From assembly GCA_009602735.1 (NCBI GenBank), contig WELA01003469.1:18166-82165 (forward strand): a stretch of 64,000 nt of DNA, read 5' to 3'. Made by a program: the position numbers and the translations under genes. The notes beneath the pieces are model-generated. The model was not told the origin of the DNA and did no database searches. It saw only the letters and a list, made by a program, of their open reading frames with translations. Below, one piece after another: positions 17,009 through 64,000 of this stretch. Every line of letters begins with the position of its first letter. Position 1 is the stretch's first letter. Origin of the DNA: Mesotaenium endlicherianum. Taxonomy: Eukaryota.

Positions 17009-17014
17009 ATGATT

Positions 17015-19398: not shown

Positions 19399-19399
19399 N

Positions 19400-27212: not shown

Positions 27213-28583
27213 TGGTCAGGGAGAGAGACCTGGCTCAGTGGGAGGAGCCTAGGGGGATTGGTGGGGGCCAGGGTACCAGGGGGAGGAATCGGGTTGTCTC
27301 AGAAGGTAAAGTGGGAGGAGGGGAACGCCAGGGGGAGTGTCCGGGAGAGTGCTAGGAAGAGGCACAGGAGGAGCGCGAGGAGTGTCGGGCATAGGCACCT
27401 CTGGAAGGTGGGGGTAGGTGAAAGGTCAAACCCCAGGGAGTGCAGGGGGTTCTTCTACAAGGGGATTTGACGAGGAAGTATATGTAGCGGGCTCTGCAAG
27501 ACCCTTGGGCAAGGGCAACTTCACAGGGCTAGGGGATGGGACCTCAGAGGGAGCACCGGTGTGGGGTTGATCTCAGGAACAAGGCAAGCAGAGAAAGAGA
27601 GAGGGCAACGGAGAGGAAAGGGGGGAAGGAGGGAGGGAGACAAAGAAAGAGAGAGAGGGAGTCACAAGGACCGCGTGCCCGTCAACAAGGACATACTAAT
27701 TCAACGTTGGTGATGTGCACGTAGGGGCCTGAACGCACCTGCGCTGCCTGCCCCTGCCGTTGCTGCCATTTCCGCCGCTGCTGGCGCTGCTCGCCCAGTA
27801 ATCCCTCCTTCATACCACATCACATAAAACCAGGTGGTAGCACCACACAGGCCACGCCTCAATCAACCTCAACCTCTCATTAGGGACGGCATCCGCTCTA
27901 CACAGCTAATGGCACAGCCATGACCGGCAAAGGCGACATGGACTACTGAACGTATGTATGTGCCTGACAGCAAGCTGCCAATTGTCAGGCGCTCGGCCAA
28001 GCGCTCTACCACGTGTCATCGCCTGCACGCGCGGATGCGCGGGCTGCCGACGTGCAGTGGCGGTTGCGCGCGAGCGTGGCCAAGGGGGCTAGAAAGATTA
28101 ACGCCGCACGCGCGCTGTGGGCTGTCACGTATGCTTCAGCTGATGCCACAGCACAAAAGGACCTGCGGCAAAGGACCCCTCGGGAGACAAACGCTCGAGA
28201 AGCTTGATTGTGAAGCATTTCACACGAGGCTAACACAAGACACACAGCCAATCCTGTGAGCGATTCACACTACTTGCGAACGGCCATCTTGCGAAAAAAT
28301 TTCATCGCGTTCCAAGTTGCATGCTCGTCCTCGTTGCGTTTCATACAAGTGAGGATGGTAAGGAGCCCCACTGTCTCTGATGCATGTTGTCGAAGGAACT
28401 TCAAGAAAGCTCAGTAGCAAACGTCCTGTGATTATACAAATGAAGCTGTGACGGGAAGCACCGCAACGATGACTCTGAACTGAGTTCATTGATTCTGGAC
28501 TTTTCGTTTTTCCAGCGGCATCTTGCACATACCAAATTTGCGCCATGGCTGCGAAGACCGACGCATGACGTTACTTGGCAGGT

Positions 28584-30914: not shown

Positions 30915-30956
<42 letters not shown>

Positions 30957-42370: not shown

Positions 42371-43811
42371 ATATGCTGTACTGGAACCAGTAATCTTGTA
42401 TAGAAGAAATATTGGTGACAAGCGAACGGCTGTATATACAACCTACACACTAGAATTGCACGACAAATTCACTAGAGAGGACGAGACTAGATTGGGTAAA
42501 ACCGAAGCACTTATACTCCCGTCCGTCTCGACAAGGTAGGGCAGCGTACTTTGGAAAGAGGAATCTTGCCGCTGTAGTATTAGGTGTTTGAACAATGGAA
42601 GTGAGAGAACCACGCTGAAGCTGGATAACTTACCTGATTCTAAAGTCTCCTCTTACCTCGTAGAGAGTCGGTTAGCCACTTACATTGCAGTATTACTTGG
42701 AATGCAGTTTCGCTCATGCAACGTAAGCCCCAATGGAGTGGCTGCAGAAGTCAGCTTACCACGCACCCCAACACTTCACACCACTTCACACTACCGGCTT
42801 AAGACTGTCGACTGACACGCGGTCAAGCAGCTGTGAAAGCCTGGTGAGCCGGTCTGAAGCGGGAGGATTTTGCTGGTCAAGGGCTCAAGAAAAAAAACCG
42901 ACAATCTGTAGCAAACATCAACACACGCAGTTGCCCCGGATTCAAATAGCCGCGCCTTGCAAGCCATTTAATTTTTTGAAAAAAATTACAACAATTAGTA
43001 GTTGCATGTGATAGGCCGCTAATTTTAAACATCACGTTAGAGTTCGAGTCAGTTTGCGTGGAGTGTATCCTCCAGTATCCGCCAATTTTTTCTCATCGGA
43101 ATAAGCTGGGAATAAGCAATGCTGGCGGACTCTGGACTACACAGGAATTATCTGCTTATTGCCAAGTAAGCAATCCGGTGAATTTATGGCAGCCTGATTG
43201 AGCCTGATACACCGGGATGGACAGGATGGAGGTTACTTTTGGCAACTTTTGGACCTTTTATGACGGCGGAAAGGCCTCCCTCAGTCATTCACAGTCTAAA
43301 TGTCCTGGAGGCGCACTCAACTGCCGCCGCTTCAAAGATCAATCCACGTCAGGAGCTCTACACTTGCTTTTTGCAGAGTGGATATATATGGAGCCAGTAT
43401 GGTGCCCATACTTGAAGTTGCTTGAAGTTGCTTGAAGTGAACTGAACGAACTGAACTAGCTGGAACTAGCATGAATTCGCATGAGCCAAGTTGCATTTAA
43501 TGGGCCTTCTATCTGCCAGTAGGCACTTCGAAGTGATATGATTGCACGCGTGTCTCCCACAACTCTACTGATGCGCTGGTTCCGATACCTGTAATGTAAG
43601 GTGCGCTTGACACGATTGAGTGCAGAAGGTCAGAAAGTGCACTAGTCCACTTTTGATTGGTTAGATGAAGTCGCTCCAGTCGATTCTCTTGTTGCTGACA
43701 AGCAATGTCAGGAAATGTCAGGTTTGGTGCTTTCATTGGTTCCGTCTAGTCAGCTTTAGTAAAGTAAGCTGAAAGTAGGGACCACTCAAAACGCTCAGGA
43801 CTGCAAGCAGC

Positions 43812-43995: not shown

Positions 43996-46446
43996 CCATC
44001 GTGATTCGTGAGTCGTCATAACCGTGAGCCGCTTATTGCTCACGACGATGCCACAATCAAATACGTGTGCACACTTTCATACAGGGCTTGGGCTGGTCCA
44101 GGTAGGCTACTCTTGGTCAGGCTGACCGCTTCAGCTTCCAGCTTCAAAAAACAGAAGGGTGTGCACTTAACATTCTTGTCGCGACTACTATCCATTTGAA
44201 GGCGAGGCACGCGTACCGCAAGTTTCGGCCGCCCAGGTACGGTGGTCAACGCTGACCTAGGACCATTGATGACCATCAACAGGTCAGCCTTGGCACAAGA
44301 TACGTGCAGTTTGAAAGACAGATTGACCCCGACCCTCAGGGGTCAGCGGGGATAAACGGCCCAGTCAGCTGGACAGCTGACTAAACCAAGGCCGCAAGAG
44401 TGTACAGCTCAGCTGAGAAGCTGACACGGTCAAGTGACCATGTGAAGACGCCCAGTCAGCTGCAAAGCTGACTATGCTGCAGACATGCAGCCGTCACAAG
44501 AGCCCAAGCGCTGACTGGACGATGCTCTCAGTCGCCAGGCTCGAGCCAAGGCTGCCATGACTTAAGCAACCAGCCAAAGGGCGTAAAGCGCTAACGTCAC
44601 GCAGCCCTGCATGCTATTTGAAAGGCTGAAGACGGTCGAGCGATGTAATGAATTAGTATATTGGTAGATATAATATTCATTTTAATATAATATTTAAATA
44701 AGTTCAGCCTGCTGAAGTTAGTTAGTATTGAGCCTGCTGGACTTTATATCATTACCAGTTTAATGACTCAGCCGGGAGCAGCAGGTTGAAGTCTACTAGG
44801 TCAGCTTGCTGACACATTCTTTGCCAGCCAGCTGCCTTCCGTACTCGGTATCAGCGAACTGTCTAGATATGCATTTAAGTGTAGTGTGCTAGATGAATGG
44901 CCAGATGACATCCTTAGGATGGATGGCGATTCGGGATGATGGGAGATGGCGGTGGATTTGGTCAACTGAGGTCCTACCAACGTGGTTAACTCTCAGATAG
45001 GCGGTGCCATCGCACTGGCCGTTGAACAGTAAACTCATTCCATGTACATATGCTAGGTATTGCCCTCGAGTTCGGCATTCGAAAACGAGGCCAACTCTCT
45101 TGTACAGCTTACTGAGAGAGATCTGAATCCAAGGCGAGAAGCCATTGATATGCACAATCTCCTAGCCTTGCTTATGTGTGAGTTTACTGATTGCATTATT
45201 GATGCTAGTTTAATTCCATTTGACTTACGAGTATTGTCCACTGCTAGTGTGTTGTCTTTTGCAGTTTAACCAATGAACAGAAAATACCATGAAGATAACT
45301 TGCTAATAGAAAGATCTTCATTAATTGTTTATCGCCTTCTTAGTAAGTCAATTCATTTCAGTGATATCGGAGCTGTTACCACAGTCTTCTTTGTATAGTA
45401 AGGACAAGGTCTCAAACTAGCAACTCCCGAGACATGGAGAACCAGGATAACGAGAATGTCGAAAATCAGGCTAAAAGCCATGTAGCGGGAACCCGTACCT
45501 ATTCTGAAGCAGTGGCAGATACTGCAGCTAGAGAGGCTGCAGATGAGTTAGCTGCTATTGCCGCAGTCGCAGCACAGCAGGCTGAGGAGGAGAGAGCCAG
45601 ATTAAACGCTAAACGATTAGCAAAGGCTGCTGAAGATGCAGAAAAGAGGGAAGGACAACCAGCAGACGAGCACACTGTCGAAGAACTTATGGCATCAAGG
45701 GCCAATGTTCTGATCCCACCTCCTGCTGTACAACTCAATGTGCCCCTAGGTCAAATTCGTGACCGGCAGAATGCGGCAGGAATTGCTGCTGCAGGAGCGA
45801 GAGGGACTGTTGAGGACACTACTCAGCAAGTGGATGCCACTGCTACTGCTGCATTTGCTAAACTCCCACCTCAGAGTGTCGATTTGGGAGCATTGTTCGT
45901 GCAAAAGTAATCGCAAATGGCGAGCATGTATCAGTCCCAACAGGAGGACAAAAGAATCATAATGTCTCTGCTGCGAGACAGAGACCAACTGGGTTCTCAA
46001 ACCACTGGTGGTGGTGGCAGAGGGCCTAGTAAGCCCAAGCCGAAACCTCCCCAGGATTATGATCCTGAGGGGAACAAGAAGTATTACCTGATCAAGTTTC
46101 TGCCTGATGTTGAGCAGTGGCTGGAGAACTACCCAAAACTGCAGGATTACGAGAAGATCAAGCACACTGGTGCTCTACTGAAAGGCAGTGCAGCAGACTG
46201 GTGGTTGTATTGGAAAGGAGAGCGTAAGGCTCAACAACTAGGTGACCCTACTTGGGTAGAGTTTGCCGAGAAGCTGCATGAGAAGTTTGATGTGATCAAT
46301 CAGCAAGAGAAAGCTATCTATGCGATGATCTCCTTGACACTGATGCACACCACTTCAGTTACTGAGTTTGCTCAAAGGTTTCAGGAGATAATGATAAAGC
46401 AGACAGACTTGCCAGAGCGGTATAGGATAGCATACTTCAGGTATGG

Positions 46447-47166
46447 TGTAATGAATCAGTATATTAGTGGATAAAATATTCATTTAAATATAATAGTTAA
46501 TTTAGTTCAGCCTGCTGAACTTTAGTTAATAGTCAGTCTGCTGGACTTTACATAATTATCAGTTTAATGACTCAGCCGGAAGCAGCAGGCTGAAGTCCAT
46601 ATAAGTCAGCTTGCTGACCCATTCTTTGACAGCCAGCTGACTTCCGTACTCGGTAGCAGCGAACTGCCTTGACTTACACCTAAGTACGATATGCTAGATG
46701 AATGGCCAGATGACATCCCTATGATGGATGGCTATTCGGGATGATGGGAGATGGCGGTGGATTTGGTTAACCGAGGTCCTACCAACGTGGTTAACTCCCG
46801 GGTAGGCGGTGCCATCGCACTGACCGTTGAACAGTAAACTCATTCCATGTACATATGCTAGGCATTGCTCTCGAGTTCGGCATTCAGAAACGAGGCCAAC
46901 TCTCTTGTACAGCTTACTGAGAGAGATCTGAATCCAAGGCGAGAAGCCATTGATACGCACTGTCTTCTAACCTTGCTTATGTATGAGTTTACTAATTTGC
47001 ATTATTGATGCTAGTTTACTCGCATTTGACTTACGAGTGTTATTCACTGCTAGTGTATTGTCCTTTGCCGTTTAACCAGTTAACGGAAATTACCATAAAG
47101 ATTACTTGCTGATATAAAGATCTTTATTAATTGTTAATCGCTTATTTGGTAAGTCGATTCATTTCA
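46447..47166 (+). mobile_element. Family-A solo LTR (720 bp) inserted in gag
   Basis: TGTAATG...CATTTCA flanked by TSD TATGG (46442-46446 and 47167-47171). The gag frame FRYG|LK resumes after it. Confidence 0.95.
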
Positions 47167-49150
47167 TATGGCCTGAAATACGAAGTCTCTGGTCATTTTG
47201 CTGAAAAGAAGTATGAGAAATTGGCTGACTTGATCCAGGATGCTGATGCTTGGGATCAGCAGCAGTTCAATCACAAGCGCCAGAGTAATGCTTTGGTGTC
47301 TAAGGTTGTCAAAAAGCCCCACAATTCCTACAATGCAATTGAAGGAGACCAGGCTGAGGATGATCAGGGTGATGAATATGCAGTCTAGAGGGAGAGGTGT
47401 TTTCTCTCGAGGCGACTATGGAAGAGGTGGTGGTAGGACTAAGCCGAGACCAACCTCAGCAAAATCTGTTTGCTTCCATTGCCAGCAATTGATCCACTTC
47501 AGAGAGCAGTGTCCAGTCAAGCACCTCCCAAAGGTCGAGAGAAATGACCAGCCTTTAAAAGACAGCAACAGTCAGTAATCTAGTCTACTGACTGTGAGGA
47601 TGCTAGAGATAGTGAGTCGTCACTAGCTGCCCTCGTAACAGGTATTATGGGTCCTGATGAACTGGATTTACTATGCATGCTTGACAACCAGATAAAGGAG
47701 ACCATCAGCAATATAGATCTCCAGAGAGTGCACACTCTGGATGATCTTGTTCCACCTGATGTCCAACATTTCTCTGCTAAGTCAGTAGAACAATGCGAAA
47801 GTCAGGAAAAGTCAGTCCCCCCTAAACTGCGAGACAGTTCTACAGCCATGTAGTATGCCAACATGGGCTACCCTCTAATATAATCTCAGACAGAGACTCA
47901 AAACTTACCTCTAAGTTATGGAGAGCTTTAATGGGGTTAATGGGAGTCAAACAGCTGCTCAGCACAGCAAACCACCCTCAGACTGATGAGCAGATTGAAA
48001 GAACTAACCGATTTCTGCAAGAGGTACTGAGAGCCTATCTTAACCAAAACAAGATAATTGGGATGACCTCTTACCTCAAATCCCGTTTGCGGTCAACCGT
48101 GCGGTGCACGCGTCAACGGGCAAGACTCCTTTTGAACTGAGCCTGGGTAGAGTCCCTAAGTCTCCTTTAGATGTACTAGGGGAGTCTTTATCTCACCCTG
48201 AAGAGATCTGGTCTCCCTCCAATTAACCCAAGAGTTTGCTGACACCCTGTCAGAAGTCCAACAGGAACCTGCACAAAGCCCAAGAAAACCAACAAAAATA
48301 CGCTACTCAGCACCGTTGAGAATTGACATTTTCTAAGGGCGATTTGGTCAAACTGCATTTTCAGCACCTGTACCAGCCTGGTGTGGTCAAGAAAAAGCTT
48401 GGTCCTGTCTGGGTCGGTCCATATTCTGTGGTGCGCCGTGTCGTTCAGATTGTTTACAAACTGAACATGTCAGCAGATTACAAGGTCACCCAGTCTTTAA
48501 TGTTTCCTTCCTGGAACCATATATTAAAGGTTACACATTGTTCACAGGTCGGTTACCTGTCCAACCGGGACCGGTCCCCGCTGTCCGGGATGGTAACCCT
48601 GAGGAATATGAGGTCGAGGACATTTTAGACGGTCGCTCTGTCCGTCTATCGTCTAAATATGTCATGAAGTACCTGGTCGGATGGAAGGGTTACGATGCCT
48701 CTGGGGACACTTGGGAATTTAAAGACCAGCTGACCAATGCCAAAGGGGCGTTGAAACGGTTCCACCTTCGGGCGGCTGGCACCCCTCCCTAATTGTCATT
48801 TCAGTGGACATGGACAGGTGACAGGAGGTCCGGTCTCCGTATAAGTCGCAGGGGAATGTGACAGTTAGTGACAGATAGTGATAGTCGTGACAAGCAGCCA
48901 ACCTTTATAATTAAGTTGGAGAGAGTGTGTTCGGTATCGGGATCAGCCAAGCGAATTTTATGACCATTCTACACACTCAACCTGCGCTCACACTCACTTT
49001 TTCTCTCTAACTCAATTCTCTCTTATACTCACTCAGACAAGATACTACACACTAGAGACTCTCCCTATCACGTTCTTCTTCACCACGGGCACTCAGTTGC
49101 GGCAAAGTGTCATGACTTCACTGACTGCATTGTGTTTATAATTGAGCAGG

Positions 49151-50424
49151 ATGACTCAAAAGTCGAAATTTAAGAGGAAGAGAAGAGCGGAAGAGGCACA
49201 TGCAGAATACTTGCAATTCCGTGGCGACATCAAATCATCCTCCATTGCCGCTTGGGAATCACAACGACTCCAACAACAGGGGGAGGCACAGAAGAAAGAG
49301 GAGGAGGAGGAACAAGCCAGATTGAGGCAGGAAGAACTAGACAGAAAAGCTACAGAGGAGGCCAAGAAGGAAGAGGAGGAGAGGCAAGTTGAGGAGAAGC
49401 GAAAGCAGCAGGCTGAAGATGAACAGAGGAGAATGAGCAGCTACCGCTACACAGTGCTGGGCAAGGGCTTTGATCTACTGGCGAAGGCCTTCAAGTATGC
49501 CCAGAGAAGTCGCAGTGAGTCACAGAAGGACATCCTGCAGAGGGAAGGGGAGACATCCCTATAGAGGTCAGCACAGGGCTCCTCCTCTACCACGATTATG
49601 CCAGGATGGTATGATATACAGTCACAGAGTCGAAGGCCCTGGCCCAAGTGAATGAGGCAGGAGCCGTATCGATTCCAGGTATTTGGGGGGAAAATAGGGT
49701 GATCCCCACGGACGCGGCCAGCTTTAAACACTCTACATCCCATAACAGGTTCAAGGCCATGTATAATGAGGTGGAGAGGAGGAGCTGGGAGTTCTTGGCC
49801 AAAGAAATCAGTCAGCTGGACTTCGCAGGGCATTGGTACCCGTGTACTCTGAAAAGGACAAACCCTGCCTTTATCCAGAAGCCCACCGATTGGCGAAGGA
49901 TGACCATCAATATGAGGGGCCAGCAGAATGACAGGGCAGGGGAGGAAGATTTCCTTACAGACTTACAGGAGAACATAGTGTTGCCTCCTCACATTGCAGC
50001 TTGGGACCCAAGATTGGATGGGGTAAGGGACTGTATGAGTCAAGAAATGCAGCAGGATAGGAGCAGGGCCCGCGAGGCATTCTCTAAAGGGAAGCACTCT
50101 TATGCCAAATGGGCAAGCAAGCAGTGAGAGAAAGACTTGTATAAGGTCAGGACTCAAGAGCCTCCACCAGCACCCAAAAGGGGAAGGTCGGTGGATAACT
50201 CTTTTTCTCGGGCAGAGCTGGAGCACCTGACAGAGGAGATCCCAGCAGTCTCAGAGAAGCCGGGGGAAGAAGAGGAGGAGTCAGAGGAAGAAGAGGAGGT
50301 TGACGAGAAAGAGGACACTAGCCCCGCTGTGACCCAGACACCTGCCACATCCCCTGTAATAGAGAAGACAAAGTTGGCCAGGGCAGACACAGCTCTGCAC
50401 CAGCTCGCTGAAGAGGAAGATATC
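49151..50424 (+). pseudogene. Diverged ORF3 homologue of the older element, interrupted at 50424 and continuing at 59377
   Basis: Shares YRYTV, YNEVERRSWE.LA, HW.PC.L, PTDWR.MT, LPPHIA.WDPRL.G and FSKGKH with the intact ORF3. Confidence 0.85.
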
Positions 50425-51222
50425 TGTAATGAATCAGTATATTAGTAGATATAATATTCAGTTAAATATAATAGTTAATTTAGTTCAGCCTGCTGGACTT
50501 TAGTTAGTAGTCAGTTTGCTGAACTTTAGTTAGTAATCAGTCTGCTGGACTTTAGTTAGTAGTCAATCTGCTGAACTTTAGTTAGTAGTCAGTCTGCTGA
50601 ACTTTAGTTAATTATCAGTTTAATGACTCGGCCAAAAGCAGCAGGCTGAAGTCAACTTAAGTCAGCTTGCTGACACATTCTTTGACAGCCAGCTGACTTC
50701 CGTGCTCGGTAGCAGCGAACTGCCTTGATATGCATCTAAGTACCACCTGCTAGTTGAATGGCCAGATGACATCCCCATGATGGATGGCTATTCGGGATGA
50801 TGGGAGATGGCGGTGGATTTGGTTAACCGAGGTCCTACCAACGTGGTTAACTCCCGGGTAGGCGGTGCCATCGCACTGACCGTTGAACAGTAAACTCATT
50901 CCATGTACATATGCTAGGCATTGCTCTCGAGTTCGGCATTCGGAAACGAGGCCAACTCTCTTGTACAGCTTACTGAGAGAACTCTGAATCCAAGGCGAGA
51001 AGCCATTGATACGCACTGTCTTCTAACCTTGCTTATGTATGAGTTTACTGATTTGCATCATTGATGCTAGTTTACTCGCATTTGACTTACGAGTATTATT
51101 CCCTGCTAGTGTATTGTCCTTTGCCGTTTAACTAGTTAACGGAAATACCATAAAGATTACTTGCTGATATAAAGATCTTTATTAATTGTTAATCGCCTAT
51201 TTGGTAAGTCGATTCATTTCAG

Positions 51223-51234
51223 TGGTATCGGAGC
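51223..51234 (+). promoter_or_regulatory. Primer-binding site, tRNA-iMet type
   Basis: TGGTATCGGAGC lies 1 nt after the LTR and differs at one base from the plant consensus TGGTATCAGAGC. Confidence 0.9.
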
Positions 51235-51255
51235 AGTTATCACAGTCTTCTTTGT

Positions 51256-52734
51256 ATGGTAAGGACAAGGTCTCAAACTAGCAACTCCCGAGACATGGAG
51301 AACCAGGATAACGAGAATGTCGAAAACCAGGCGGAAAGCCATGTAGCGGGAAACCGTACCTATTCGGAAGCAGTAGCGGATACTGCAGCTAGGGAGGCTG
51401 CAGATGAGGCAGCTGCTATTGCCTCAGTCGCAGCTCAGCAAGCTGAGGAGGAGATAGCCAGACTAGAAGCTGAACAAGTAGCAAAGGCCGCTGAAGATAT
51501 ACAAAGGAGGGAAGGACAGCCAGCTGACGAGCGCACTGTTGAAGAACTTATGGCATCAAGGGCCAATGTTCTGAACCCACCTCCTGCCGTACAACTCAAT
51601 GTACCCCTAGGTCAAATACGTGACCGGCTGAATGCGGCAGGAATTGCTGCTGCAGGAGCAAGAGGGATTGTTGAGGACACTACTCAGCGAGTAGATGCCA
51701 ATGCTGCTGCTGCATTTGCTAATCTACCACCCCAAAATGTAGACTTGGGAGCATTGTTCGTTCAGATGCAGTCGCAAATGGCGACCATGTATCAGTCCCA
51801 GCAGGAGGACAAAAGAATCATAATGTCCCTACTCCGGGACAGAGACCAACTGGGGTCTCACACCACTAGTGGTGGTGGCCGAGGGCCTAGTAAGCCCAAG
51901 CCGAAACCTCCCCAGGACTATGATCCTGAGGGAAACAGAAAATATTACCTGATCAAGTTTCTCGCGGATGTTGAGCAGTGGCTGGAGAACTACCCAGAAC
52001 TGCAAGATTACGAGAAGGTCAGGCACACCGGTGCGCTACTGAAAGGCAGTGCCGCAGACTGGTGGCTTTACTGGAAGGAAGAGCGTAAGGCTCGGCAACT
52101 CGGTGACCCTACGTGGGTAGAGTTTGTCGAGAAGTTGCATGAGAAGTTTGATGTCATCAACCAGCAGGAGAAAGCTATCTATGCGATGATCTCCCTGACA
52201 CTGAAGCAGACCACTTCAGTTGCTGAGTTTGCTCAAAAGTTCCAAGAGAACATGATGAAGCAGCCTGATTTGCCAGAACGGTATAGGATAGCATACTTCA
52301 GGTATGGCTTGAAATCCGAGGTCTCTGGTCATTTTGCTGAGAAAAAGTATGAGAAACTGGCTGACTTGATCCAGGATGCTGACGCCTGGGATCAGCAGCA
52401 GTTCAATCACAAGCGCCAGAGTAACGCTTTGGTGTCTAAGATTGTCAAAAAGCCCCACGGTTCCTACAATGCAGTTGAAGGAGACCAGGCTGAGGATAAT
52501 CAGGGTGATGAATATGAGTATGAGTACAATGCTATTCAGTCTAGAGGTAGAGGTGGTCCCTCTCGAGGTGGCTATGGAAGGGGTGGTGGTAGGACTAAGC
52601 CGAGACCAGCCTCAGCAAAATCTACTTGCTACCATTGTCAGCAGAAAGGCCACTACAGAGAACAGTGTCCGGTCAAGCACCTGCCTAAGGTCGAGAGAAA
52701 AGACCAGCCTTTAAAAGACAGCAACAGTCAGTAA
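51256..52734 (+). CDS. gag: Gag, 492 aa
   Basis: Capsid-like LKGSAADWW...[16 protein letters not shown] tract, CCHC knuckle [14 protein letters not shown]. Confidence 0.95.
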
Positions 52735-55700
52735 TCCAGTCTACTGACTGTGAGGATGCTAGAGATAGTGAGTCGTCACTAGCTGCCCTCGTAGCAGGTA
52801 TTATGGGTCCTGCTGAACTGGATTCACTATGCATGCCTGACAACCAGATAAAGGAGACCATCAGCAATATAGACGTCCAGAGAGTGCACACTCTGGATGC
52901 TCTTGTTCCACCTGATGTCCAACATTTCTTTGCTACGTCAGGAGAACAATGCGAAAGTCAGGAAAAGACAGTCCCCCCTATCCTACTGCATTGCATGATT
53001 GCAGGTAGGAAGGTGAGGGCATTTGTTGACGGAGGGGCGTCACATACTTTTATCCACAAGGACTTAGTTAAGCGGCTAAGGCTGCCTACTGTCACCCAAG
53101 GGAATAGAAAAATATTCCTTGGAGATGCCTCAAGTATCCCGGGAGGAGTTATAACCAAGCCTATTGAGGTCCAGTTAGGTTCTGGCATTGCAGTTCTAAC
53201 TGAAACGCTTACATTTGAGGTACTCAACACTGGCTTTTATGATCTCGTGCTAGGCAGGTCCTGGCTTAATAGACATCAAGCTGAAGTGTGTTGGAGCAGA
53301 GGTACAGTTAAAGTGAGAGGAGCCAGTGATGGGCAGACTGACTTGGCACCCACCAGTGCTCTTCCTCTTGTCCTGTGTGGATGGCAAATGAAGGAAAAGA
53401 AGAGGCTTCCAGAAGGATGCAAGTTGCTGAATGCAATGGAGTTCGTCAAAAGCTGGAACCAGAAGGAAGACAGAATGTTCTGTCTGCTGCTAAGAGAGGT
53501 ACCTCCTCAACCTGAAGAAGTGGTTGAGAAAAAGGTACACCCTCCGGAACACCCTACTGCTGCAAACATTGTTGCTCAGTACACGGATGTGTTTAATATG
53601 CCTCCAGGACTACCCCCTAAGCGGGAAGTAGATCATAGGATTGATTTATTACCTGGTAGCCAGCCACCCTGGCAACGCACGTATGGCTTGTCTTATTTGG
53701 AGAGTGAGGAGTTGAAAACACAGATTGCAGAGCTGGAGGAAAATGGTTACATTTCTCCCAGTAAATCACCGTACGGCGCACCTATCCTATTTGTTAAGAA
53801 AAAGGATGGCAGTATGCGGATGTGTGTGGATTACAGAGCCCTGAACAGAATTACAGTAAAGAACAAGTATGCTTTACCCAGAATCGAGGACTTGCTTGAT
53901 ACCCTGTCTGGCGCTAAGGTGTTCAGTAAGATAGATCTCAAGAGTGGTTATCATCAAATCAGAATTGCTGAGGGGGATGAACACAAGACTGCTTTCCGCA
54001 CACGTTATGGACACTATGAGTTCAACGTGATGCCATTTGGACTGACTAATGCTCCTGCTACCTTTATGGGTGCTATGAATGACATTTTCAGACCTTATTT
54101 GGATAAGTTTGTGCAAGTTTTCCTGGATGATATTTTAATTTTCTCTAAAGATGAAGCTCAGCACACTGAACACTTAAAGAAAGTGCTGGACACTCTGCGG
54201 AAAAATCACTTGTATGCTAAAATGAGCAAGTGTGATTTCTTTAAGGAAAGTATTGAATTCTTAGGCCACGTTGTCAGTAAAGAGGGCATCAGTGTGGATC
54301 CTAAGAAAGTCCAGACCATAAGGGACTGGCCAGTACCACAGTCTGTCTCTGAAGTTAGATCCTTCCTCGGGTTGGCTAACTACTATAGGAGATTTATTGA
54401 GAATTATTCCACAAAGGCCAGTAAACTGACTGACCTTACTAAGAAAGACATCGGGTATGTGTGGGGGGAAGAGCAGCAGGCTGCCTTCCAGACCCTTAAA
54501 GATGCCCTTTGTTCTGCCCCAGTGCTAGCCGTGTATGACCCCAGCAAACCGGTGCAGGTGGTTACTGATGCCTCTGATTTTGCCATGGGTGCTATTTTGT
54601 TGCAGCCTGCTGACAAAACCACAAAGGATGGTAAGGTACGGCAGGAGTGGCATCCTGTGTTGTATGAGTCTATGAAATTTAATCCAGCGGAGATTAATTA
54701 CTCAGTGCATGATAAAGAGCTGCTAGCTATCATTCATGTACTCAAACAGTGGAGAGCATACTTACATGGTAAAGCTTTTAAGGTGATTACAGATCATCTA
54801 GCTCTGACCCACTTTCAGAAGAAGTCCAAGCTGTCGAGGAGGGAGAACCGCTGGAGCCAGATGCTGGAGCAGTTCCAAGTCCAGATCGACTACAAACCAG
54901 GGAAGTTGAATCCTGCTGATGCACTCTCTAGAAGACCTGACTTGCAAGAAAGGAACTTTAGTCAGCATACTGTAGATAAAGTCCTGTGTGCACTCACTTC
55001 ACTAAAGGTGAAAAAGTCCTTCCTTGAACAACTTAGGAAAGCCTACCTTTCTGACCCAACATTTGAGCCCAGCCCCACTACTGGTATGTGTCGTGCTACC
55101 GCACTCGGGTATAAGCTCAAGGGAGGGGTCTGGGTGACTGAAACCACTTCAGGCAGGCTGAAGCTGGTCATTCCTAATAATTTGGAAATAAGGTCTCTCT
55201 TACTGAGTCAAGCTCATGACAGTCTCCTGGGTGGACATTTGGGGCAGGCCAAAACTGTTGGCAAACTGGCAAAACATTATCATTGGGAGGGGTTACCCCG
55301 GGAGGTCTTGAAATATGTCAAGTCCTGTGACCAGTGTCAGAGAAATAAGTCTCGGCACACACCACCCGGAGGTCTCTTGCAACCGCTACCCATCCCAGCG
55401 GGACGCTGGGAAACTATATCCATGGACTGGGTGGTCTCACTACCAAGAACTGCCAACGGGCATGATTCAATACTGGTAGTCGTGGATAAACTGACAAAAA
55501 TGGTCATTTTTATCCCCACAACTGTCAAAGTGACTGCACTCGAAACAGCGAGACAGTTTTACAACCATGTAGTATGCCAACATGGGCTCCCTTCTAATAT
55601 CATCTCAGACAGAGACTCAAAATTCACCTCTAAGTTCTGGAGAGCTTTAATGGGGTTAATGGGAGTCAAACAGCTGCTCAGCACAGCAAACCACCCTCAG

Positions 55701-56519
55701 ACTGATGGGCAGACTGAAAGAACTAACCGAGTTCTGCAGGAGGTGCTGAGAGCATATATTAACCAAAAACAAGATAATTGGGATGACCTGTTGCCTCAAA
55801 TTCAGTTTGCGGTCAACAGTGCGGTGCACGCGTCAACGGGCAAAACTCCTTTTGAACTCAGCCTGGGTAGAGTCCCTAAGTCTCCTCTAGATGTGCTAGG
55901 GGAATCTTTAACTCACCCTGAAGGGATTGACAACCCGGTCTCCCTCCAGTTAACTCAGGAGTTTGCTGACACCCTGTCAGAAGTCCAACGAAACTTGCAC
56001 ACGGCCCAAGAAAACCAACAAAAATACGCTAATCAACACCGTCGGGAACTGACATTTTCCAAGGGGGATTTAGTCAAACTGCATTCTCAGCACCTGTACC
56101 TCCCTGGTGTGGTCAAGAAAAAGCTTGGCCCTGTCTGGGTCGGTCCATATTCGGTGGTCCGTCGTGTCGGTCAGAATGCTTACAAACTGAACATGTCAGC
56201 TGAATACAAGGGGCACCCGGTCTTTAATGTCTCCTTCCTGGAACCGTACATCAAAGGTGATACACTGTTCACAGGTCGGTTCCCTGTCCAACCGGGACCG
56301 GTCCCCGCTGTCCGGGACGGCGACCCTGAGGAATATGAGGTCGATGAGATTTTAGACGCTCGCTCGGTCCGTCGATCGTCTAAATATGTCATGAAATACC
56401 TCATTCGATGGAAGGGTTACGATGCCTCTGGGGACACTTGGGAGTTTAAGGACCACTTGACCAATGCCAAAGGGGCGTTGACACGGTTCCACCTTCGGGC
56501 CGCTGGAGTCCCTCCATAA
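52689..56519 (+). CDS. pol: Pol: protease, RT, RNase H, integrase, chromodomain
   Basis: VDGGASH (PR); MPFGLTNAP and FLDD (RT); TDAS and DKELLA (RH); H-H-C-C, DDE and GPY (INT); YEVDEIL...YLIRWKGY...DTWE (chromodomain with aromatic-cage residues). First ATG at 52803. Confidence 0.97.
52710..52823 (+). promoter_or_regulatory. Predicted -1 ribosomal frameshift signal
   Basis: T_TTA_AAA in the gag frame, 7-nt spacer, perfect 10-bp stem at 52724-52751. pol is in the -1 frame and open from 52689. Confidence 0.8.
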
Positions 56520-56786
56520 CTGTCATTTCAGTTGACACGGGAAGGTGACAGGCGGTCCTGTCTCCATTTAAGTTGGAGGGGAAAATATATGACAGTTAGT
56601 GAGCGAGAGCGATAAAAACACACTCATACGTTTATGTGTAGCGCATCGCAACTACGTCAACTTTTAGCAATCATCCTGTAAGGTAAACAGCAGCGAAGCC
56701 ACTATACTAAATACTAACATACTTCCTGCAATCCCTATGACAAAGGTCCATATCCTACTAACTTGTGCCCTGGTTACATGTGCAGG

Positions 56787-58463
56787 ATGGCGCCCACCAC
56801 ACAAAAGGAGGACAGAAAGCGCAAGGCAGAAGAAGCCAGGAGGACAATGGAGCAATACCAGAAGGAGCTGGCGGCGACGTCCCTCACCAGGAGAGAACAA
56901 GAAAGGGTCCGCAAACAACAAGAGGCGGCAGAAGAGGCACAGAGGAAGAAGGATCAGGAAGCGGAAAACCTCAGGAAGGCTGAGGAGGAGAGACAGAAGA
57001 AACAGCAAGAAGAAGCGGCAGCGGCAGAAGAGGAGAAAAGAAAAAAGATTGAAGCGGACAGACAGAAGAGCTTGGCCACTTACAGGTATACTGTGGTGGG
57101 TGGCCAAAACTTCGATAACCTGAAGGAAGCATTGCTGGCAGCCCAGGAGATCAACAGGCTGGAACAGACAACACTGCTACAGAAGGAAGGAGCTACAGCA
57201 CTGGACAGGTACATCGAGACACACACCGGCGTGGTCCTTTACGAAGATTATGCTAAGATGGTGGGCTATACAGCAGAGCAGGCCCGGTATCTCGCAGATG
57301 ATTCAGAGGACAAGCCGGTCCCCATACCGGGAATAGTGGGAGATCAGAGACTCATCCGGATGGTGAGCATGCGGCCCGATAGCTTTAAGGATACGGTATT
57401 CTACCTCACACTCCTGCCAGCTTACAATGAAGTTGAGAGAAGGAGCTGGGAGTACTTGGCCAGGGAAGCAGGACAGCAGATGTTCTCTCCCCACTGGTTC
57501 CCGTGTAAACTGAGGAAGGCTGAGCACGGACCCCAGTACTACCAGCAGCCAACAGACTGGAGGTGGATGACCGTCACAAATAAGAAGCAGGAGTGTGACC
57601 GAGCCCAACCGGATGACTTCCACTATGGCCTAGACGGCTATCTCATCCTACCACCTCACATTGCCCCTTGGGACCCCAGGCTGAATGGATGCCTGAGCAA
57701 TATGAATGCAGAGACCAAGGAACATAGGAGGAGGGGAAGAGACTACTTCTCTAAGGGAAAGCATGCCTTTGTCAAATGGGCAAAGAATGCAGGCCGGATA
57801 GATATCAGTAGGCTGAAGGCCAAGCAACCTCCAGCGCGCCCTAAGAAAGGGAGGTCGGTAGACTACTCCATGTCTACTAGGGAGCAGGACGACTTAGTGG
57901 ACGAGACCCCTACTCTCTCCGAGGAGGAGGATGAGGAGGCTGAGGAAGAAGAACAGGGCAGAGGAGAAGCATCAGCAGCAGGTACTCAGGATACCCAGGG
58001 ACAGGTAGGGGCGCTTCTTAAAGAACCACGATCAGGTGTTTGGAATGTGATCCCCGTTATGGCGACTACTGGACCCCGCGCTCGCTCCCACAGCCCACCT
58101 GCCCAAGCAGGGGAAGAAGCTGATCTGACTGTATTGGGCAGCAGACACAGGCAGAAATCCCCAGAGGACAGGGGTGCCAGAAGAGGGACACGCGGGTGGG
58201 CCAGAGGTATGCCAGCCTCCCCCTCCGCTCAGGGGCATGTACCTCTAGCCAATGTATTTCAGCATCCTACTGGAATGCCTGTCTATGTGGGCATCAACAC
58301 CCAAGTGGTTGAAGAGCAGGCTACCATCCTTCGTTCTCCTCGAGGTCCAACTTTAGAGCAAACCGGGTTCTTTAGAAGGCCAGCTGACAGACCTAGAGGG
58401 CTGTCCAGATCTAGGTCCAGATCTCCGTCCCCTGATCCTGAAGCCCCAGGAACCACCCCTTAA
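56787..58463 (+). CDS. ORF3: extra sense-strand retrotransposon protein of unknown function, 558 aa
   Basis: Intact ORF between pol and the PPT. Charged coiled-coil N-terminus, conserved central domain, acidic and RS-rich tail. Homologues at 49151, 63327 and about 12440-12830. Confidence 0.88.
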   Translation: MAPTTQKEDRKRKAEEARRTMEQYQKELAATSLTRREQERVRKQQEAAEEAQRKKDQEAENLRKAEEERQKKQQEEAAAAEEEKRKKIEADRQKSLATYRYTVVGGQNFDNLKEALLAAQEINRLEQTTLLQKEGATALDRYIETHTGVVLYEDYAKMVGYTAEQARYLADDSEDKPVPIPGIVGDQRLIRMVSMRPDSFKDTVFYLTLLPAYNEVERRSWEYLAREAGQQMFSPHWFPCKLRKAEHGPQYYQQPTDWRWMTVTNKKQECDRAQPDDFHYGLDGYLILPPHIAPWDPRLNGCLSNMNAETKEHRRRGRDYFSKGKHAFVKWAKNAGRIDISRLKAKQPPARPKKGRSVDYSMSTREQDDLVDETPTLSEEEDEEAEEEEQGRGEASAAGTQDTQGQVGALLKEPRSGVWNVIPVMATTGPRARSHSPPAQAGEEADLTVLGSRHRQKSPEDRGARRGTRGWARGMPASPSAQGHVPLANVFQHPTGMPVYVGINTQVVEEQATILRSPRGPTLEQTGFFRRPADRPRGLSRSRSRSPSPDPEAPGTTP

Positions 58464-58540
58464 GGTGACAGGCTGAAAAGATAGTCAGTAAGGGAGGCTG
58501 GTCAGGGTCAGTTTCTTTATTTAAAGCTTTTGCAGTTTAA

Positions 58541-58576
58541 TGTTGTCGAGGCGACAACAACTTAAGTTGGAGGGAT
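58541..58576 (+). promoter_or_regulatory. Hairpin and polypurine tract before the 3' LTR
   Basis: TGTTGTCG-AGG-CGACAACA stem-loop followed by ttaagttggagggat|TG. Confidence 0.8.
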
Positions 58577-60114
58577 TGTAATGAATCAGTATATTAGTAG
58601 ATATAATATTCAGTTAAATATAATAGTTAATTTAGTTCAGCCTGCTGGACTTTAGTTAGTAGTCAGTTTGCTGAACTTTAGTTATTAGCCAGTCTGCTGG
58701 ACTTTACCTAATTAGTCAGACTGCTGGACTTTACATAATTAGTCAGTCTGCTGGACTTTACATAATTATCAGTTTAATGACTCAGCCGGAAGCAGCAGGC
58801 TGAAGTCCATATAAGTCAGCTTGCTGACCCATTCTTTGACAGCCAGCTGACTTCCGTACTCGGTAGCAGCGAACTGCCTTGATATGCATCTAAGTGCGAT
58901 ATGCTAGATGAATGGCCAGATGACATCCCTATGATGGATGGCTATTCGGGATGATGGGAGATGGCGGTGGATTTGGTTAACCGAGGTCCTACCAACGTGG
59001 TTAACTCCCGGGTAGGCGGTGCCATCGCACTGACCGTTGAACAGTAAACTCATTCCATGTACATATGCTAGGCATTGCTCTCGAGTTCGGCATTCGGAAA
59101 CGAGGCCAACTCTCTTGTACAGCTTACTGAGAGAGATCTGAATCCAAGGCGAGAAGCCATTGATACGCACTGTCTTCTAACCTTGCTTATGTATGAGTTT
59201 ACTGATTTGCATTATTGATGCTAGTTTACTCTCATTTGACTGACGAGTAGTATTCCCTGCTAGTGTATTGTCCTTTGCCGTTTAAACGAGTTAACGGAAA
59301 TACCATAAAGATTACTTGCTGATATAAAGATCTTTATTAATTGTTAATCGCCTATTTGGTAAGTCGATTCATTTCAATATCACTTGGCTGGGGATTGCCA
59401 GGGGACAAAGCTCAGTTGCAGGCGCAGAGACCCAGTCAGTTAGGGTAGACAGAAGGGCTGCCAGAGAAATAGCCAGAGGCCTGCCAGCATCTCCCTTGCA
59501 GAGAGGACATTTGCCATTGGCTCATGTCATGCAATATCCTTTTGGAATGCCGGTATATGTACCTGTCAGTTTGAGGGATGCCCAGGAGAAGGCTGCTTTT
59601 CTTCAGTTTCAAACTGTGTAGGAGAAAACAGCCCAGTTACTACGTTCTCCCCTTGGTTCCCCCTACTCGGAGCCCCCAGGCTTCAGGAGACCCTAAGACA
59701 GAAGCAGGAGGTGTGGCTCTCAGTCTCGCTCCCCTAATTGTAGAGCCCCAGGAACATCTCCTTCATAAGAACAGTAGGCTGAGAGGAAGGAGACCAATAC
59801 TCAGTTGGGAAAAAACATGTACCCAATGTTAGTGTTGTCGAGGCGAAAACTTGTTAAGTTGGAGGGATTGTAATGAATCAATATATTGGTAGATATAATA
59901 TTCATTTAAATATAATAGTTAAATAAGTTCAAGCTGCTGAACTTAGTTAGTATTGAGCCTGCTGGACTTTGTATAATTACCAGTTTAATGACTCAGCCGG
60001 GAGCAGCAGGCTAAAGTAAACTAGGTCAGCTTGCTGACACATTCTTTGCCAGCCAGCAGCTGCCTTTCGAACTCGGTAGCAGCGAACTGCCTAGATATGC
60101 ATTCAAGTGTGGTG

Positions 60115-63100
60115 TGCTCACTACACGGATGTATTTAATATGCCTCCAGGACTACTCCCTAAGAGGGAAGTAGATCATAGGATTGATTTATTACCTGGGA
60201 GTCAACCACCCTGGCAACGCACATATGGCTTGTCTTATGTGGAGAGCGAGGAGTTGGAAACACAGATTGCAGAGCTTGAGGAAAATGGTTATATTTCTCC
60301 CAGTAAATCACCTTACGGCGCACCCATCCTATTTGTTAAGGAAAAGGATGGCAGTATGCAAATGTGTGTGGATTACAGAGCTCTGAACAGAATTACAGTA
60401 AAAAACAAGTATGCCTTACCCAGAATCGAGGACTTGCTTGATACCCTGTCTGGTGCTTAGGTGTTCAGTAAGATAGATCTCAAGAGTGGCCATCATCACA
60501 TCAGAATTGCTGAGGGGGATGAACACAAGACTGCCTTCCGCACACGTTATGGACACTATGAGTTCAACGTGATGCCATTTGGACTGACTAATGCTCCGCG
60601 ACCTTCATGGGTGCTATGAATGACATTTTCAGACCTTATTGGATAAGTTTGTGCAAGTTTTCCCGGATGATATTTTAATTTTCTCTAAAGATGAAGCTCA
60701 GCACGCTGAACACTTGAACACAGTCATGGCCACTCTGAGAAGAAATCACTTATATGCTAAAATGAGCAAGTGTGATTTCTTCAAAGAAAGTATTGAATTC
60801 TTAGGCCACGTCGCCAGTAAAGCAGGCATCAGTGTGGATCCTAAGAAAGTCCAGACCATAAGGGACTGGCCAGTACCACAGTCTGTCTCTGAAGTTAGAT
60901 CCTTCCTCGGGTTGGCTAACTACTATAGGAGATTTATTGAGAATTATTCCACAAAGGCCAGTAAACTGACTGACCTTACGAAGAAAGACATAGGGTATGT
61001 GTGGGGGGAAGAGCAGCAGGCTGCCTTCCAGACCCTTAAAGATGCTCTTTGTTCTGCCCCGATGCTAGCCGCGTATGACCCCAGCAAACCGGTGCAGAAG
61101 GTCACTGATGCCTCTGACTTTGCCATGGGTGCTATTTTGTGGCATCCTGCTGACAAAACCACAAAGGATGGTAAGGTATGGCAGGAGTGGCACCCTGTGT
61201 TGTATGAGTCTATGAAATTTAATCCAGCGGAGATTAATTACTCAGTGCATGATAAAGAGCTGCTAGCTATCATTCATGTGCTCAAACAGTGGAGAGCATA
61301 CTTACATGGTAAAGCTTTTAAGGTGATTGTAGATCATCTAGCTCTGATTCACTTTCAGAAGAACTCCAAGCTGTCGAGGAGGGAGAACCGCTCGAGCCAG
61401 ATTCTGGAGCAGGTTCAATTCCAGATCGACTACAAACCAGGGAAGTTAAATCCTGCTGATGCACTCTCTAGAAGACCTGACTTGCAAGAACGGAACTTTG
61501 GTCAGCATGCTGTAGATAAAGTCCTATGTGCACTCACTTCACTAAAGGTGAAAAAGTCATTCTTTGAACAACTTAGAAAAGCCTACCTTTCTGACCCAAC
61601 ATTTGAGGCCAGCCCCACTACTGGTATTGAGTCAAGCACATGACAGTTTACTGGGTGGGCCTTTGGGGCAAGCCAAAACTGTTGGCAAACTGGCAAAACA
61701 CTATCATTGGGAGCAATTACCCCGGGAGGTCTTGAAATACGTTGTCCTGTGACCAGTGTCAAAAGAATAAGTCTAGGCACACACCACCGGGAGGCCTCTT
61801 ACAACCGCTGCCCATCCCAGCTAGCCGCTGGGATACAATATCCTGGGACTGGGTGGTCACACTGCCACGAACTGCCAATGGGCATGATTCGATATTGGTA
61901 GTCGTGGGTAAACTGACAAAAATGGTCATTTTCATCCCCACAATTGTCAAAGTAACTGCACTCGAAACAGCGAGACGGTTCTACAACCATGTAGTATGCC
62001 AACATGGGCTACCCTCTAATATAATCTTAGACAGGGACTCGAAATTTACCTCTAAGTTCTGGAGGGCTTTAATGGGGTTAATGGAAGTCAAGCAGCTGCT
62101 CAGCACAGCAAACCACCCTCAGACTGATGGGCAGACTAACCGAGTCCTGCAAGAAGTACTGAAATCTTATATTAACCAAAAACAAGATAATTGGGATGAC
62201 GTGTTACCCCAAATCCAATTTGCGGTCAACAGTGCGGTGCACGCGTCAACGGGCAAGACTCCTTTTGAACTAAGCCTGGGTAGGATCCCTAAGTCTCCTT
62301 TGGATGTCTTAGGGGAGTCTTTAACTCACCCTCAAGGGACTGACAATCCGGTCTCCCTCCAGTTAACTCAGGAGTTTGCTGACACCCTGTCAGAAGTCCA
62401 ACAAAACTTGCACAAAGCCCAAGAAAACCAACTAAAGTATGCTAATCAGCACCGTCGAGAACAAACCTTTTCTAAGGGCAATTTGGTCAAACTGCATTCT
62501 CAGCACCTGTACCTCCCTGGCGTGGTCAAGAAAAAGCTTGGTCCTGTTTGGGTCATTCCATATTCGGTGGTGCGCCGTGTCGGTCAGATCACTTACAAAC
62601 TGAACATGTCAACAGAATACAAGGGTCACCCGGTCTTTAATGTTTCCTTCCTTGAACCCTACATCAAAGGGGACACACTGTTCACAGGTCGGTTACCTGT
62701 CCAACCGAAACCGATCCTCGCTGTCCGGGACGGTGACCCTGAGGAATTTGAGGTTGAGGAGATTTTAGACGCGCGCTCGGTCCGTCGATCGTCTAAATAT
62801 GTCATGAAGTACCTCATTCGATGGAAGGGTTAGGATGCCTCTGGGGACATTTGGGAATTTAAGGACCATTTGACCAATGCCAAAGGGGCGTTGAAACGGT
62901 TCCATCTTCGGGCGACTGGAGCCCCTCCATAACTGTCAATTCAGTTGACACGGGAAGGTTCTAGGCGGACCTGTCTCCATTTAAGTTGGAGGGGAAAATA
63001 TATGACAGTTAGTGTGCGAGAGCGAGAAAGGAACAGTTATGTAAACCCTAAGTGTCAGCATAGTGACAGATGGGACAGCCTGGCCAACATAACGCACCTT

Positions 63101-63644
63101 GGGCAGAAGGAAAATGGGCCTCACACAGCAATACATCACTTAACGCACCTTCAAACACATTCATATGTTTATGTATAGTGCACCGCAACTACGTCAACTC
63201 TTAGCAATCACTTGCTAAGGTAAACAGAGGCAAATCCACCATACTAATACGAACATACTTCCTGCCTGCAATTCCTATGACAAAGGTCGATATCCTACTA
63301 ACTTGTGCCCTGGTTACATGTGCAGAATGGCTTTCACCACACACAAGGAGGACAGAAAGCGCAAGGCAGAAGAAGCCAGGAGGACAATGGAGCAATACCT
63401 GAAGGAGCTGGCGGCGACGTCCCTCACCAAGAGAGAACAAGAAAGGGTCCGCAGACAACAAGAGGCGGCAGAAGAAGCACAGAGAAAGAAGGATCGAGAA
63501 GCGGAAAATCTCAGGAAAGCTGAGGAGGAGAGACAGAAGAAACAACAAGAAGAAGCGGCAGCGGCAGAGGAGGAGAGAAGGAAAAAGGCTGTAGCGGACA
63601 GGCAGAAGAGCTTGGCCACTTACGGGTATACTGTGGTGGGTGGC
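60115..63644 (+). mobile_element. Third, degenerate family-A internal region (RT to chromodomain, and the 5' part of ORF3 from 63327), fused to a truncated LTR
   Basis: Close match to 53575-57104 with stops, frameshifts and a deletion at about 61627. The LTR-pol junction has TGCT microhomology. Confidence 0.9.
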
Positions 63645-64000
63645 TGTAATGAATCAGTATATTAGTAGATATAATATTCATTTAGATGTAATAGTAAATT
63701 AAGTTCAACCTGCTGAACTTTAGTTAAATTATCAGTTTGCTGGACTTTATATTTAATAACAGTTTAATGACTCAGACGGATGCAGCAGGCTGAAGTCAAC
63801 TTAAGTCAGCTTGCTGACACATTCTTTGACAGCGAGCTGACTTCCGTACTCGGTAGCAGCGAACTGCCTCATATGCATTTAAGTGTGGTAGGCTAGATGA
63901 ATGGCCAGATGACATCCCTATGATGGATGGCCATTCGGGATGATGGGAGATGGCGGTGGATTTGGTTAATCGAGGTCCTACCAACGTGGTTAACTCCCGG
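63645..64000 (+). mobile_element. Family-A LTR inserted in ORF3, running off the window
   Basis: TGTAATGAATCAG starts at 63645 and interrupts YTVVGG. Confidence 0.92.

Follow-up and report, generated by a model that had tools for sequence, protein, structure and literature searches.

A probable -1 frameshift signal with a candidate pseudoknot at the gag-pol junction of a chromodomain retrotransposon in Mesotaenium endlicherianum

We analysed a stretch of 64,000 nucleotides (hereafter the window) from Mesotaenium endlicherianum (GenBank assembly GCA_009602735.1, contig WELA01003469.1, positions 18,166 to 82,165 of the forward strand), with emphasis on the junction between gag and pol of a chromodomain Ty3/gypsy retrotransposon with long terminal repeats (LTRs). 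The full-length element occupies 50425-59376 on the plus strand (8,952 nt). Its LTRs have TG...CA ends, are 95.5% identical (760/796 ungapped columns) and are flanked by a 5-bp target-site duplication, ATATC, at 50420-50424 and 59377-59381. The domains follow the order Gag, protease, reverse transcriptase (RT), RNase H (RH) and integrase with a C-terminal chromodomain, so that LTRs, duplication and domain order are all those of a Ty3/gypsy chromovirus. The residues Y...W..Y of the aromatic cage were recognised by eye at their characteristic positions in the chromodomain. The primer-binding site (PBS) resembles the plant initiator tRNA-Met type, as would suit a green-plant host, and no self-priming complement of at least 9 nt was found in the 5′ LTR. 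The open reading frames (ORFs) of gag and pol are both intact and overlap by 46 nt in frames 0 and -1, and Pfam detected no Gag domain in pol. Coordinates are collected in Table 1.

A heptamer of the form X_XXY_YYZ in the phase of the upstream frame, within a 0/-1 overlap and with a predicted stable structure 5-9 nt downstream, is the canonical layout of eukaryotic -1 programmed ribosomal frameshifting, and this is what we found at the junction. The heptamer U_UUA_AAA is followed by a 7-nt spacer (52717-52723) and by a 10-bp stem (stem 1; pair probabilities 0.88-1.0, folding z -4.1), which closes an 8-nt loop, ATCCAGTC (52734-52741). The gag stop codon, TAA at 52732-52734, sits at the top of stem 1 and ends 18 nt after the heptamer. 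Only two of the 277 heptamers in the window, at 47554 and 52710, are followed by a 5-9 nt spacer and a perfect stem of at least 10 bp, and both are junctions of the same retrotransposon family. In 30 dinucleotide shuffles this combination arose once among 7,868 heptamers. The initial annotation, made from the sequence alone, had placed the heptamer, spacer and stem 1 here, had added a hairpin TAGTGA-gtcg-TCACTA further downstream (52766-52781) and had read the whole as a -1 frameshift cassette. All of these parts lie where it put them, the cassette stands far above chance, and its frameshift reading is well supported by the frame geometry, the chance tests and the relatives described below.

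Table 1. Features of the element at 50425-59376 and predicted RNA structures around its gag-pol junction. Values between 0 and 1 are predicted pair probabilities.
Feature	Position	Strand	Basis
5′ LTR	50425..51221	+	TG...CA ends; comparison of the LTR pair
Primer-binding site	51223..51234	+	Read from the sequence; one wobble position
gag, 492 aa, with capsid and CCHC zinc knuckle	51256..52734	+	ORF; Pfam Ty3_capsid, Retrotrans_gag, zf-CCHC
pol, -1 frame relative to gag: transframe segment, protease, RT, RNase H, integrase, SH3, chromodomain	52689..56519	+	ORF and Pfam
Slippery heptamer U_UUA_AAA (TTTAAAA), phased to the gag frame	52710..52716	+	Sequence; shuffle test
Stem 1 and its loop	52724..52751	+	Arms 52724-52733/52742-52751, 10 Watson-Crick pairs, ∼-13.9 kcal/mol
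Predicted stem 3, irregular hairpin closed by GAGG/CCUC	52752..52790	+	Closing pairs 0.73-0.90
Predicted stem 4, 7 bp	52792..52815	+	0.65-0.88 with the stem-2 strands held free; 0.03 in free folding
Distal strand ACUGGAU, which may pair with the stem-1 loop (6-7 bp) as the 3′ arm of a pseudoknot stem 2	52817..52823	+	Complementarity
Hairpin with loop A-GUGCAC-A, candidate kissing loop	52871..52903	+	Palindrome 52884-52889; z -2.9, folding window picked after seeing the fold
Further predicted hairpin in the low-divergence stretch	52903..52949	+	z -2.9, post hoc
Additional sense ORF downstream of pol (581 codons from stop to stop)	56718..58463	+	ORF list; paralogue at 49418-50253
3′ LTR	58577..59376	+	Comparison of the LTR pair

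Relatives of the element were collected by a protein-based scan of metagenome contigs, in which 79 loci (40-64% identity) were kept from 519 matches. An upstream ORF followed by pol in the -1 frame is present in 50 of them, 13 have a single ORF, and 16 are truncated or otherwise arranged; one of the 50 (L047) falls in a single-ORF branch of the tree described below and is probably wrongly counted. All of the upstream ORFs tested as Gag (21/21) proved to be so. A search with Gag at E 1e-8 among near-length candidates found no relative. A phased, in-frame heptamer occurs in 41 of the 50 -1 relatives under a slightly relaxed rule (38 are strict XXXYYYZ), and the gag stop ends 15 nt past it in 31 of these 41. 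Among 26 non-redundant junctions, our element included, 21 have a contiguous stem of at least 7 bp starting 3-9 nt after the heptamer, and the core GTCAGTA..TCTACTGAC is common to our element and some relatives. Two sister branches supplied 18 alignable junctions, in which 93.3% of stem 1 is paired and two columns (8 cells) are changed on both sides; 0/500 shuffles reached this covariation score, which kinship of the rows inflates. By eye, the double changes run from GGGTGTC/GACACCC to GGCGTC/GACGCC in L077 and to GTGCC/GGCAC in L052 and L057. An Rfam search returned one chance match (E 4.9). Some gag/-1 pol relatives lack a canonical heptamer (L030-L032, L002, L007, L008, L027, L055), and L030-L032 carry G_GGG_AAA at the usual site, a possible non-canonical shift site.

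As the heptamer and stem 1 are far above chance and their layout is common in relatives and recurs in the published lycophyte element SM-Tcn1 (see below), we consider -1 frameshifting at U_UUA_AAA 52710-52716 very likely. The overlap might instead have come from a frameshift mutation in a decayed single ORF; this was rejected, as both ORFs are intact, gag and pol stand in the same relative frames in a second copy on the plus strand, and the cassette lies far above chance expectation.

Three other junctions of the family lie in the window. The two on the minus strand represent one duplicated event, a 5,171-bp tandem duplication at 14229-24570 with 5,170 identical positions, which is either very recent or an assembly artefact. 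Thus, there are two independent other copies, one on each strand, and within-family covariation is limited to four junctions, or three independent sequences. In each independent copy 0/20 nt of stem 1 are changed, compared with 12/70 and 19/70 just upstream. Two independent deletions of the protease-RT-RNase H region, from 52980 to 55527 and from 52909 to 55171 in the coordinates of the full-length element, were also seen; both break just past the structured region (window sites 47808-47824 and 18189-18192/23360-23363).

The initial annotation further proposed that the stem-1 loop pairs with a distal strand to form a three-stem pseudoknot. The 7-nt match of ATCCAGT to ACTGGAT is indeed exact, covers 7 of the 8 loop nucleotides and begins 65 nt past stem 1, but a functional pairing is only plausible, given the chance values, a broken pair in one copy and a competing fold. 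A 7-bp loop match arose in 35/3,000 shuffles within the next 75 nt, in 78/3,000 within 100 nt and in 132/3,000 within 150 nt, and with G-U pairs allowed the match was equalled in 235-362/3,000 shuffles. Taken alone, the match is thus modest evidence (p 0.01-0.1). H-type geometry requires at least one unpaired base in loop 1, and the knot would therefore be of 10+6 or 9+7 bp rather than 10+7; it is a feasible prediction. When 52724-52824 is folded alone the distal strand is unpaired in the minimum free energy (MFE) structure, and the nested helix that competes for it in the longer fold (52820-52826) costs ∼4 kcal/mol to open, against -8.1 for the stem-2 duplex. A hairpin nested in the connecting loop is predicted as the annotation had claimed, but the stem that it named, TAGTGA/TCACTA (0.28-0.46), is one of two registers for the inner part of stem 3, the other being GCTAG/CTAGC (0.44-0.57), and a fourth hairpin is possible. 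Stem 4 is not intact in the other window copies. We predict that the 65-nt connecting loop compacts into one or two hairpins, giving three or four stems. A hairpin inside the connecting loop was also seen by eye in L028, L036, L049, L051 and L070, and three-stem forms may be common in the group.

The relatives offer further evidence on this pairing, the five junctions without a contiguous stem being left out. Loops paired with their own downstream sequence at a mean of -7.6 kcal/mol, compared with -5.2 for that of other elements (permutation p 1e-4), and in 7 of 17 lineage picks the pairing ranked top among its own control windows, where about 2 were expected (Fisher p 0.001 without our element). 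In the weaker picks the distal strand lies 7 to 64 nt after stem 1, which puts the 65 nt of our element at the long end. The published SM-Tcn1 sequence (PMC2864245 supplement S3) shows, by eye, GGGAAAC followed, after a 6-nt spacer, by a stem of 11 bp, whose loop has a 7-nt match 33 nt downstream. We conclude that distal loop pairing probably contributes, as part of a putative pseudoknot (10+6 or 9+7 bp) whose long loop is compacted.

These results suggest the following scheme. A minority of ribosomes would slip back one base on U_UUA_AAA, by tandem slippage of the Leu- and Lys-tRNA, to make Gag-Pol. The 10-bp stem 7 nt downstream would likely stall ribosomes, and its loop may pair with ACUGGAU 65 nt further on to form an H-type pseudoknot. 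Termination at the gag UAA atop stem 1 would be the fate of most ribosomes and would supply the excess of Gag needed for particles; those that shift would continue as ...DQPLK-RQQQSV... through protease, RT, RNase H, integrase and chromodomain. Sequence features, frames and the conservation pattern are observed; from them we infer the slippage, the pseudoknot and its effect on efficiency. The explanation as a whole, a gag/-1 pol overlap served by frameshifting with stem 1 and an H-type pseudoknot, is one that we hold with moderate confidence.

At the heptamer, the minus-strand copies (18189-18459 and 23360-23630) carry an additional base and differ at two third positions. They read gag into pol in frame as ...KDQPIKRQQQSV..., in almost exact agreement with the product predicted for the shift, up to a deletion of 1 nt opposite 52791. 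This single case may stem from an in-frame Gag-Pol lineage or from reverse-transcriptase slippage at the shift site.

Several observations weigh against the proposed scheme. ViennaRNA folding gives no pseudoknot scores, and the free fold of 52717-52840 puts the last four bases of the distal strand in the competing nested helix, with an unpaired probability of 0.01-0.18. A second, 6-nt complement of the stem-1 loop lies at 52893, in the 3′ arm of the 52871-52903 hairpin, and such matches are cheap. Among the relatives, 10 of the 17 picks are not the best of their own windows, several are only 4-5 bp long, and the strong matches (p < 0.05) have the distal strand 12-17 nt after stem 1 rather than 65 nt. 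Within the family, the distal arm of the minus copy, AGTGGAT, makes a G-G mismatch in stem 2, its stem 1 is intact despite the lost heptamer, and no compensatory double change in stem 2 was found in the two independent copies (one wobble, one mismatch). The wobble is a C-to-T change in the stem-1 loop of the plus copy (atctagt, ∼47578), compatible with the distal strand; another occurs in the TAGTGA/TCACTA hairpin of the minus copy (tagtga/tcgcta). Both variants that the annotation had cited as G-U compatible are therefore real, but they were selectively chosen, the mismatch and missing heptamer of the minus copy being left out, and the copies give a more mixed picture than the annotation had drawn. 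Finally, pol has a strong-context ATG in its own frame at 52803, and three poly(A) runs of the same label give a depth of 0-0.41 over 52485-53014. With 6-12% of each run read and 200-325 matching reads each, few of them 99% alike, these runs are uninformative on splicing or expression at the junction; they hold nearly no reads there and none on the third ORF. The window or parts of it are present in 20 listed public sequencing runs from 7 studies, none of which is an RNA run containing the stretch.

Frameshifting could also proceed with stem 1 as a simple hairpin, the distal match being due to chance or incidental and the nested hairpins sequestering ACUGGAU. The free-fold MFE, which places 52820-52826 in the nested helix, agrees with this, as do the p of 0.01-0.1 for the distal match, its disruption in one copy and the title of PMC3203594, ‘Stem-loop structures can effectively substitute for an RNA pseudoknot’. 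It leaves unexplained that loop-distal pairing is enriched across relatives and found in SM-Tcn1, that the distal strand is unpaired in the MFE of 52724-52824 alone, and that silent sites are conserved through the distal strand (see below). We regard a simple hairpin as possible but rather unlikely.

In gag, third-position changes number 105/319 and 78/476 in the two independent copies; the counts for integrase are 125/383 and 53/316. Over 52735-52824 they fall to 3/30 and 0/30 (p ∼0.005 each), over 52825-52905 to 2/27 and 1/27, and over 52906-52980 to 0/25 in the sole copy that reaches there. Silent-site change is thus low for 190-260 nt past the heptamer, beyond the cassette of 52689-52823 that had been annotated, and there seems to be RNA-level constraint from the heptamer onward. 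Recombination, by leaving this stretch with a recent common ancestor, would lower divergence too and would make the downstream hairpins incidental. It would fit the first- and second-position changes, which are at background level in this stretch, and the differences from our element that the two other copies share at 52794, 52874, 52875 and 52900. On the other hand, both copies show the drop from the heptamer onward, third-position change amounts to 16-33% in the gag sequence that precedes and the integrase sequence that follows, and the shared changes at 52874, 52875 and 52900 preserve the 52871-52903 hairpin by a bulge shift. Recombination is in our view unlikely, a little more so than the simple hairpin.

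The low-divergence stretch covers the 52871-52903 hairpin, which is predicted in all three independent sequences (z about -3, post hoc windows) with the GUGCAC loop unchanged in both other copies. A 6-nt GC-rich palindrome in a purine-flanked hairpin loop is the form of a kissing loop of the dimerisation initiation site (DIS) type, here in a predicted fold. It is the only such palindromic loop in the 8,952-nt element; with criteria set post hoc, 18.5% of 200 shuffled elements have one, and the expectation is 0.006 per 270 nt. None of the 41 relatives has a GUGCAC-type hairpin at the corresponding downstream position; in four of them, all of one lineage, it is the stem-1 loop that holds a palindrome. 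The HIV-1 DIS lies in the retroviral 5′ leader. Our hairpin, a candidate for dimerisation only, lies inside pol and is family-specific; what it has in common with that site is the purine-flanked GUGCAC palindrome in a hairpin, GUGCAC being one of three prevalent HIV-1 DIS palindromes according to the portion of PMC5874298 available. As a dimerisation element the hairpin is a lead only. On a bolder reading the junction would be an RNA domain of 190-260 nt, with a four-stem pseudoknot and a DIS-like kissing loop in pol, that couples Gag-Pol synthesis to dimerisation or packaging, the first such domain in a plant LTR retrotransposon, and the element would belong to a so far unclassified lineage of chromoviruses whose third gene is an orphan. 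This would explain why the region is retained in two independently deleted copies and why the stems are kept after the in-frame gag-pol fusion, and we think it improbable.

The least probable account dispenses with frameshifting: splicing, or a shorter RNA whose start is the strong-context ATG 52803 upstream of protease, would give rise to pol, and the stem would serve some other end such as packaging or termination control. The minus copy with stem 1 but no heptamer might suit this account, as might plant Ogre and Copia elements, in which Gag is set apart from Pol by splicing (PMC6317226, PMC12786077). But a phased heptamer at the canonical distance, also in 41/50 relatives, would then have no role, the pol frame is open for 38 codons upstream of that ATG, and no RNA joint is listed, in reads lacking coverage there; we consider splicing or initiation at 52803 very unlikely.

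The element resembles the Tf1/sushi chromoviruses (SM-Tcn1 and PpatensLTR2; fungal Tcn1, MAGGY and skippy) in being a chromodomain Ty3/gypsy element with overlapping gag and -1 pol. Tf1/sushi elements mostly use -1 frameshifting, as stated in the accessible part of 10.1101/2022.12.06.519325, and for Tcn1 149 elements (60%) have overlapping ORFs, 83% are self-priming and 5% use tRNA-Met, with no extra ORF listed (PMC6317226 Additional file 5). The junction thus appears to be an inherited mechanism of the retrotransposon itself and not a virus-like oddity. Differences from Tcn1 are the tRNA-Met-like PBS, as opposed to 83% self-priming, and the extra 3′ sense ORF; from SM-Tcn1 the element differs in its RT motif (SGYHQ instead of GAYNL, by eye) and in its structured connecting loop of 65 nt instead of 33 nt. 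Among the features that define the Tcn1 clade in REXdb, it has overlapping gag/pol ORFs and an aromatic-cage chromodomain, and lacks self-priming. An RT-RH tree (115 sequences, FastTree), whose deep nodes are weak, places it outside the single-ORF group of seed plants, at the end of a long branch. By its layout the element would work like Tf1/sushi and Tcn1 elements, but we make no Tcn1 assignment because self-priming is lacking and the tree contained no named Tcn1 reference.

Seed-plant chromoviruses (Tekay, Reina, CRM, Galadriel) and Chlamyvir share with the element a chromodomain, a 5-bp target-site duplication and, commonly, a tRNA-Met PBS, and differ from it in having a single ORF or an in-frame stop where it has an overlapping -1 pol. 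A single ORF prevails in seed-plant chromoviruses (60-74%) and an in-frame stop in Chlamyvir (80%), whereas the Tcn1 elements of mosses and lycophytes mostly have overlapping gag and pol (PMC6317226 Additional file 5). The contrast with single-ORF plant elements that had been drawn for this locus therefore holds for the seed-plant clades and fails for moss and lycophyte Tcn1. According to PMC5009743, a 2003 survey found separate frames in no more than two types of plant element, in both cases +1, and the available main text of PMC2864245 makes no mention of frameshifting.

Three-stem and elaborated pseudoknots have been described in viruses (parts of PMC1110908, PMC3835772). The layout predicted here resembles the three-stemmed pseudoknot of SARS-CoV, in which a heptamer and a short spacer lead into a long stem 1, with a stem 2 and a further stem inside the connecting loop (PMC1110908). 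SARS-CoV also has a kissing loop with a palindrome, tied to its frameshift element and affecting frameshifting (PMC3575852), for which the GUGCAC hairpin is a candidate counterpart. There is no sequence relation by Rfam, the structure was measured there and is predicted here, and our element has up to two nested hairpins and its palindrome in a separate hairpin ∼60 nt past the knot. Deletion of stem 3 barely altered SARS-CoV frameshifting, as reported in the sections available of PMC1110908 and PMC3835772.

The extra ORF after pol is predicted to have a coiled-coil-like start, a globular-looking middle and a low-complexity end. It matched no significant Pfam family (one weak match of low-complexity type fell below the Pfam cut-off), had no Atlas match and had 0 matches among 1.84 billion representative sequences. 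Its identity to the paralogue at 49418-50253, in the copy that hosts the element, is 45%, whereas the gag and integrase DNA of the same copy is ∼89% identical. The third ORF would thus be either fast-evolving or swapped.

The element is part of nested insertions of one family at 44645-64000, in which an older copy contains both a solo LTR (46447-47166) and the full-length element. One DNA run shows the family to be very abundant, with 61,242 contig pieces matched. Elsewhere in the window, GC-rich (∼67%) ORFs of 547 and 1,913 codons at 28569-36170 have no Pfam family, and an intronless 568-codon ORF at 40736-42442 (minus strand), with DUF7950 and a weak PAS-like match, is probably a host gene.

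Frameshift-driven expression of Gag-Pol is assumed for Tf1/sushi-type elements (10.1101/2022.12.06.519325, in the part available). Our literature search found no paper describing or testing a stimulatory RNA structure or frameshift pseudoknot of a plant chromovirus; Gao et al. 2003, the.DOC supplements of PMC2864245 and PMC6317226 Additional file 1 could already cover such structures.

Taken together, we conclude that the core mechanism is ordinary and of a known kind, and that what is new is the suppression of silent-site change 190-260 nt past the heptamer, covering the GUGCAC hairpin. The element is distinguished by its long structured loop, the extended constraint with the DIS-like hairpin, the in-frame copy and the orphan ORF. 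If the palindromic hairpin dimerises, it would be a packaging or dimerisation signal inside pol. Our junction, SM-Tcn1 and the 41 metagenome junctions form a naturally varied panel of compact -1 signals with a common stem-1 core, which makes the roles of loop length and extra stems directly testable in reporters.

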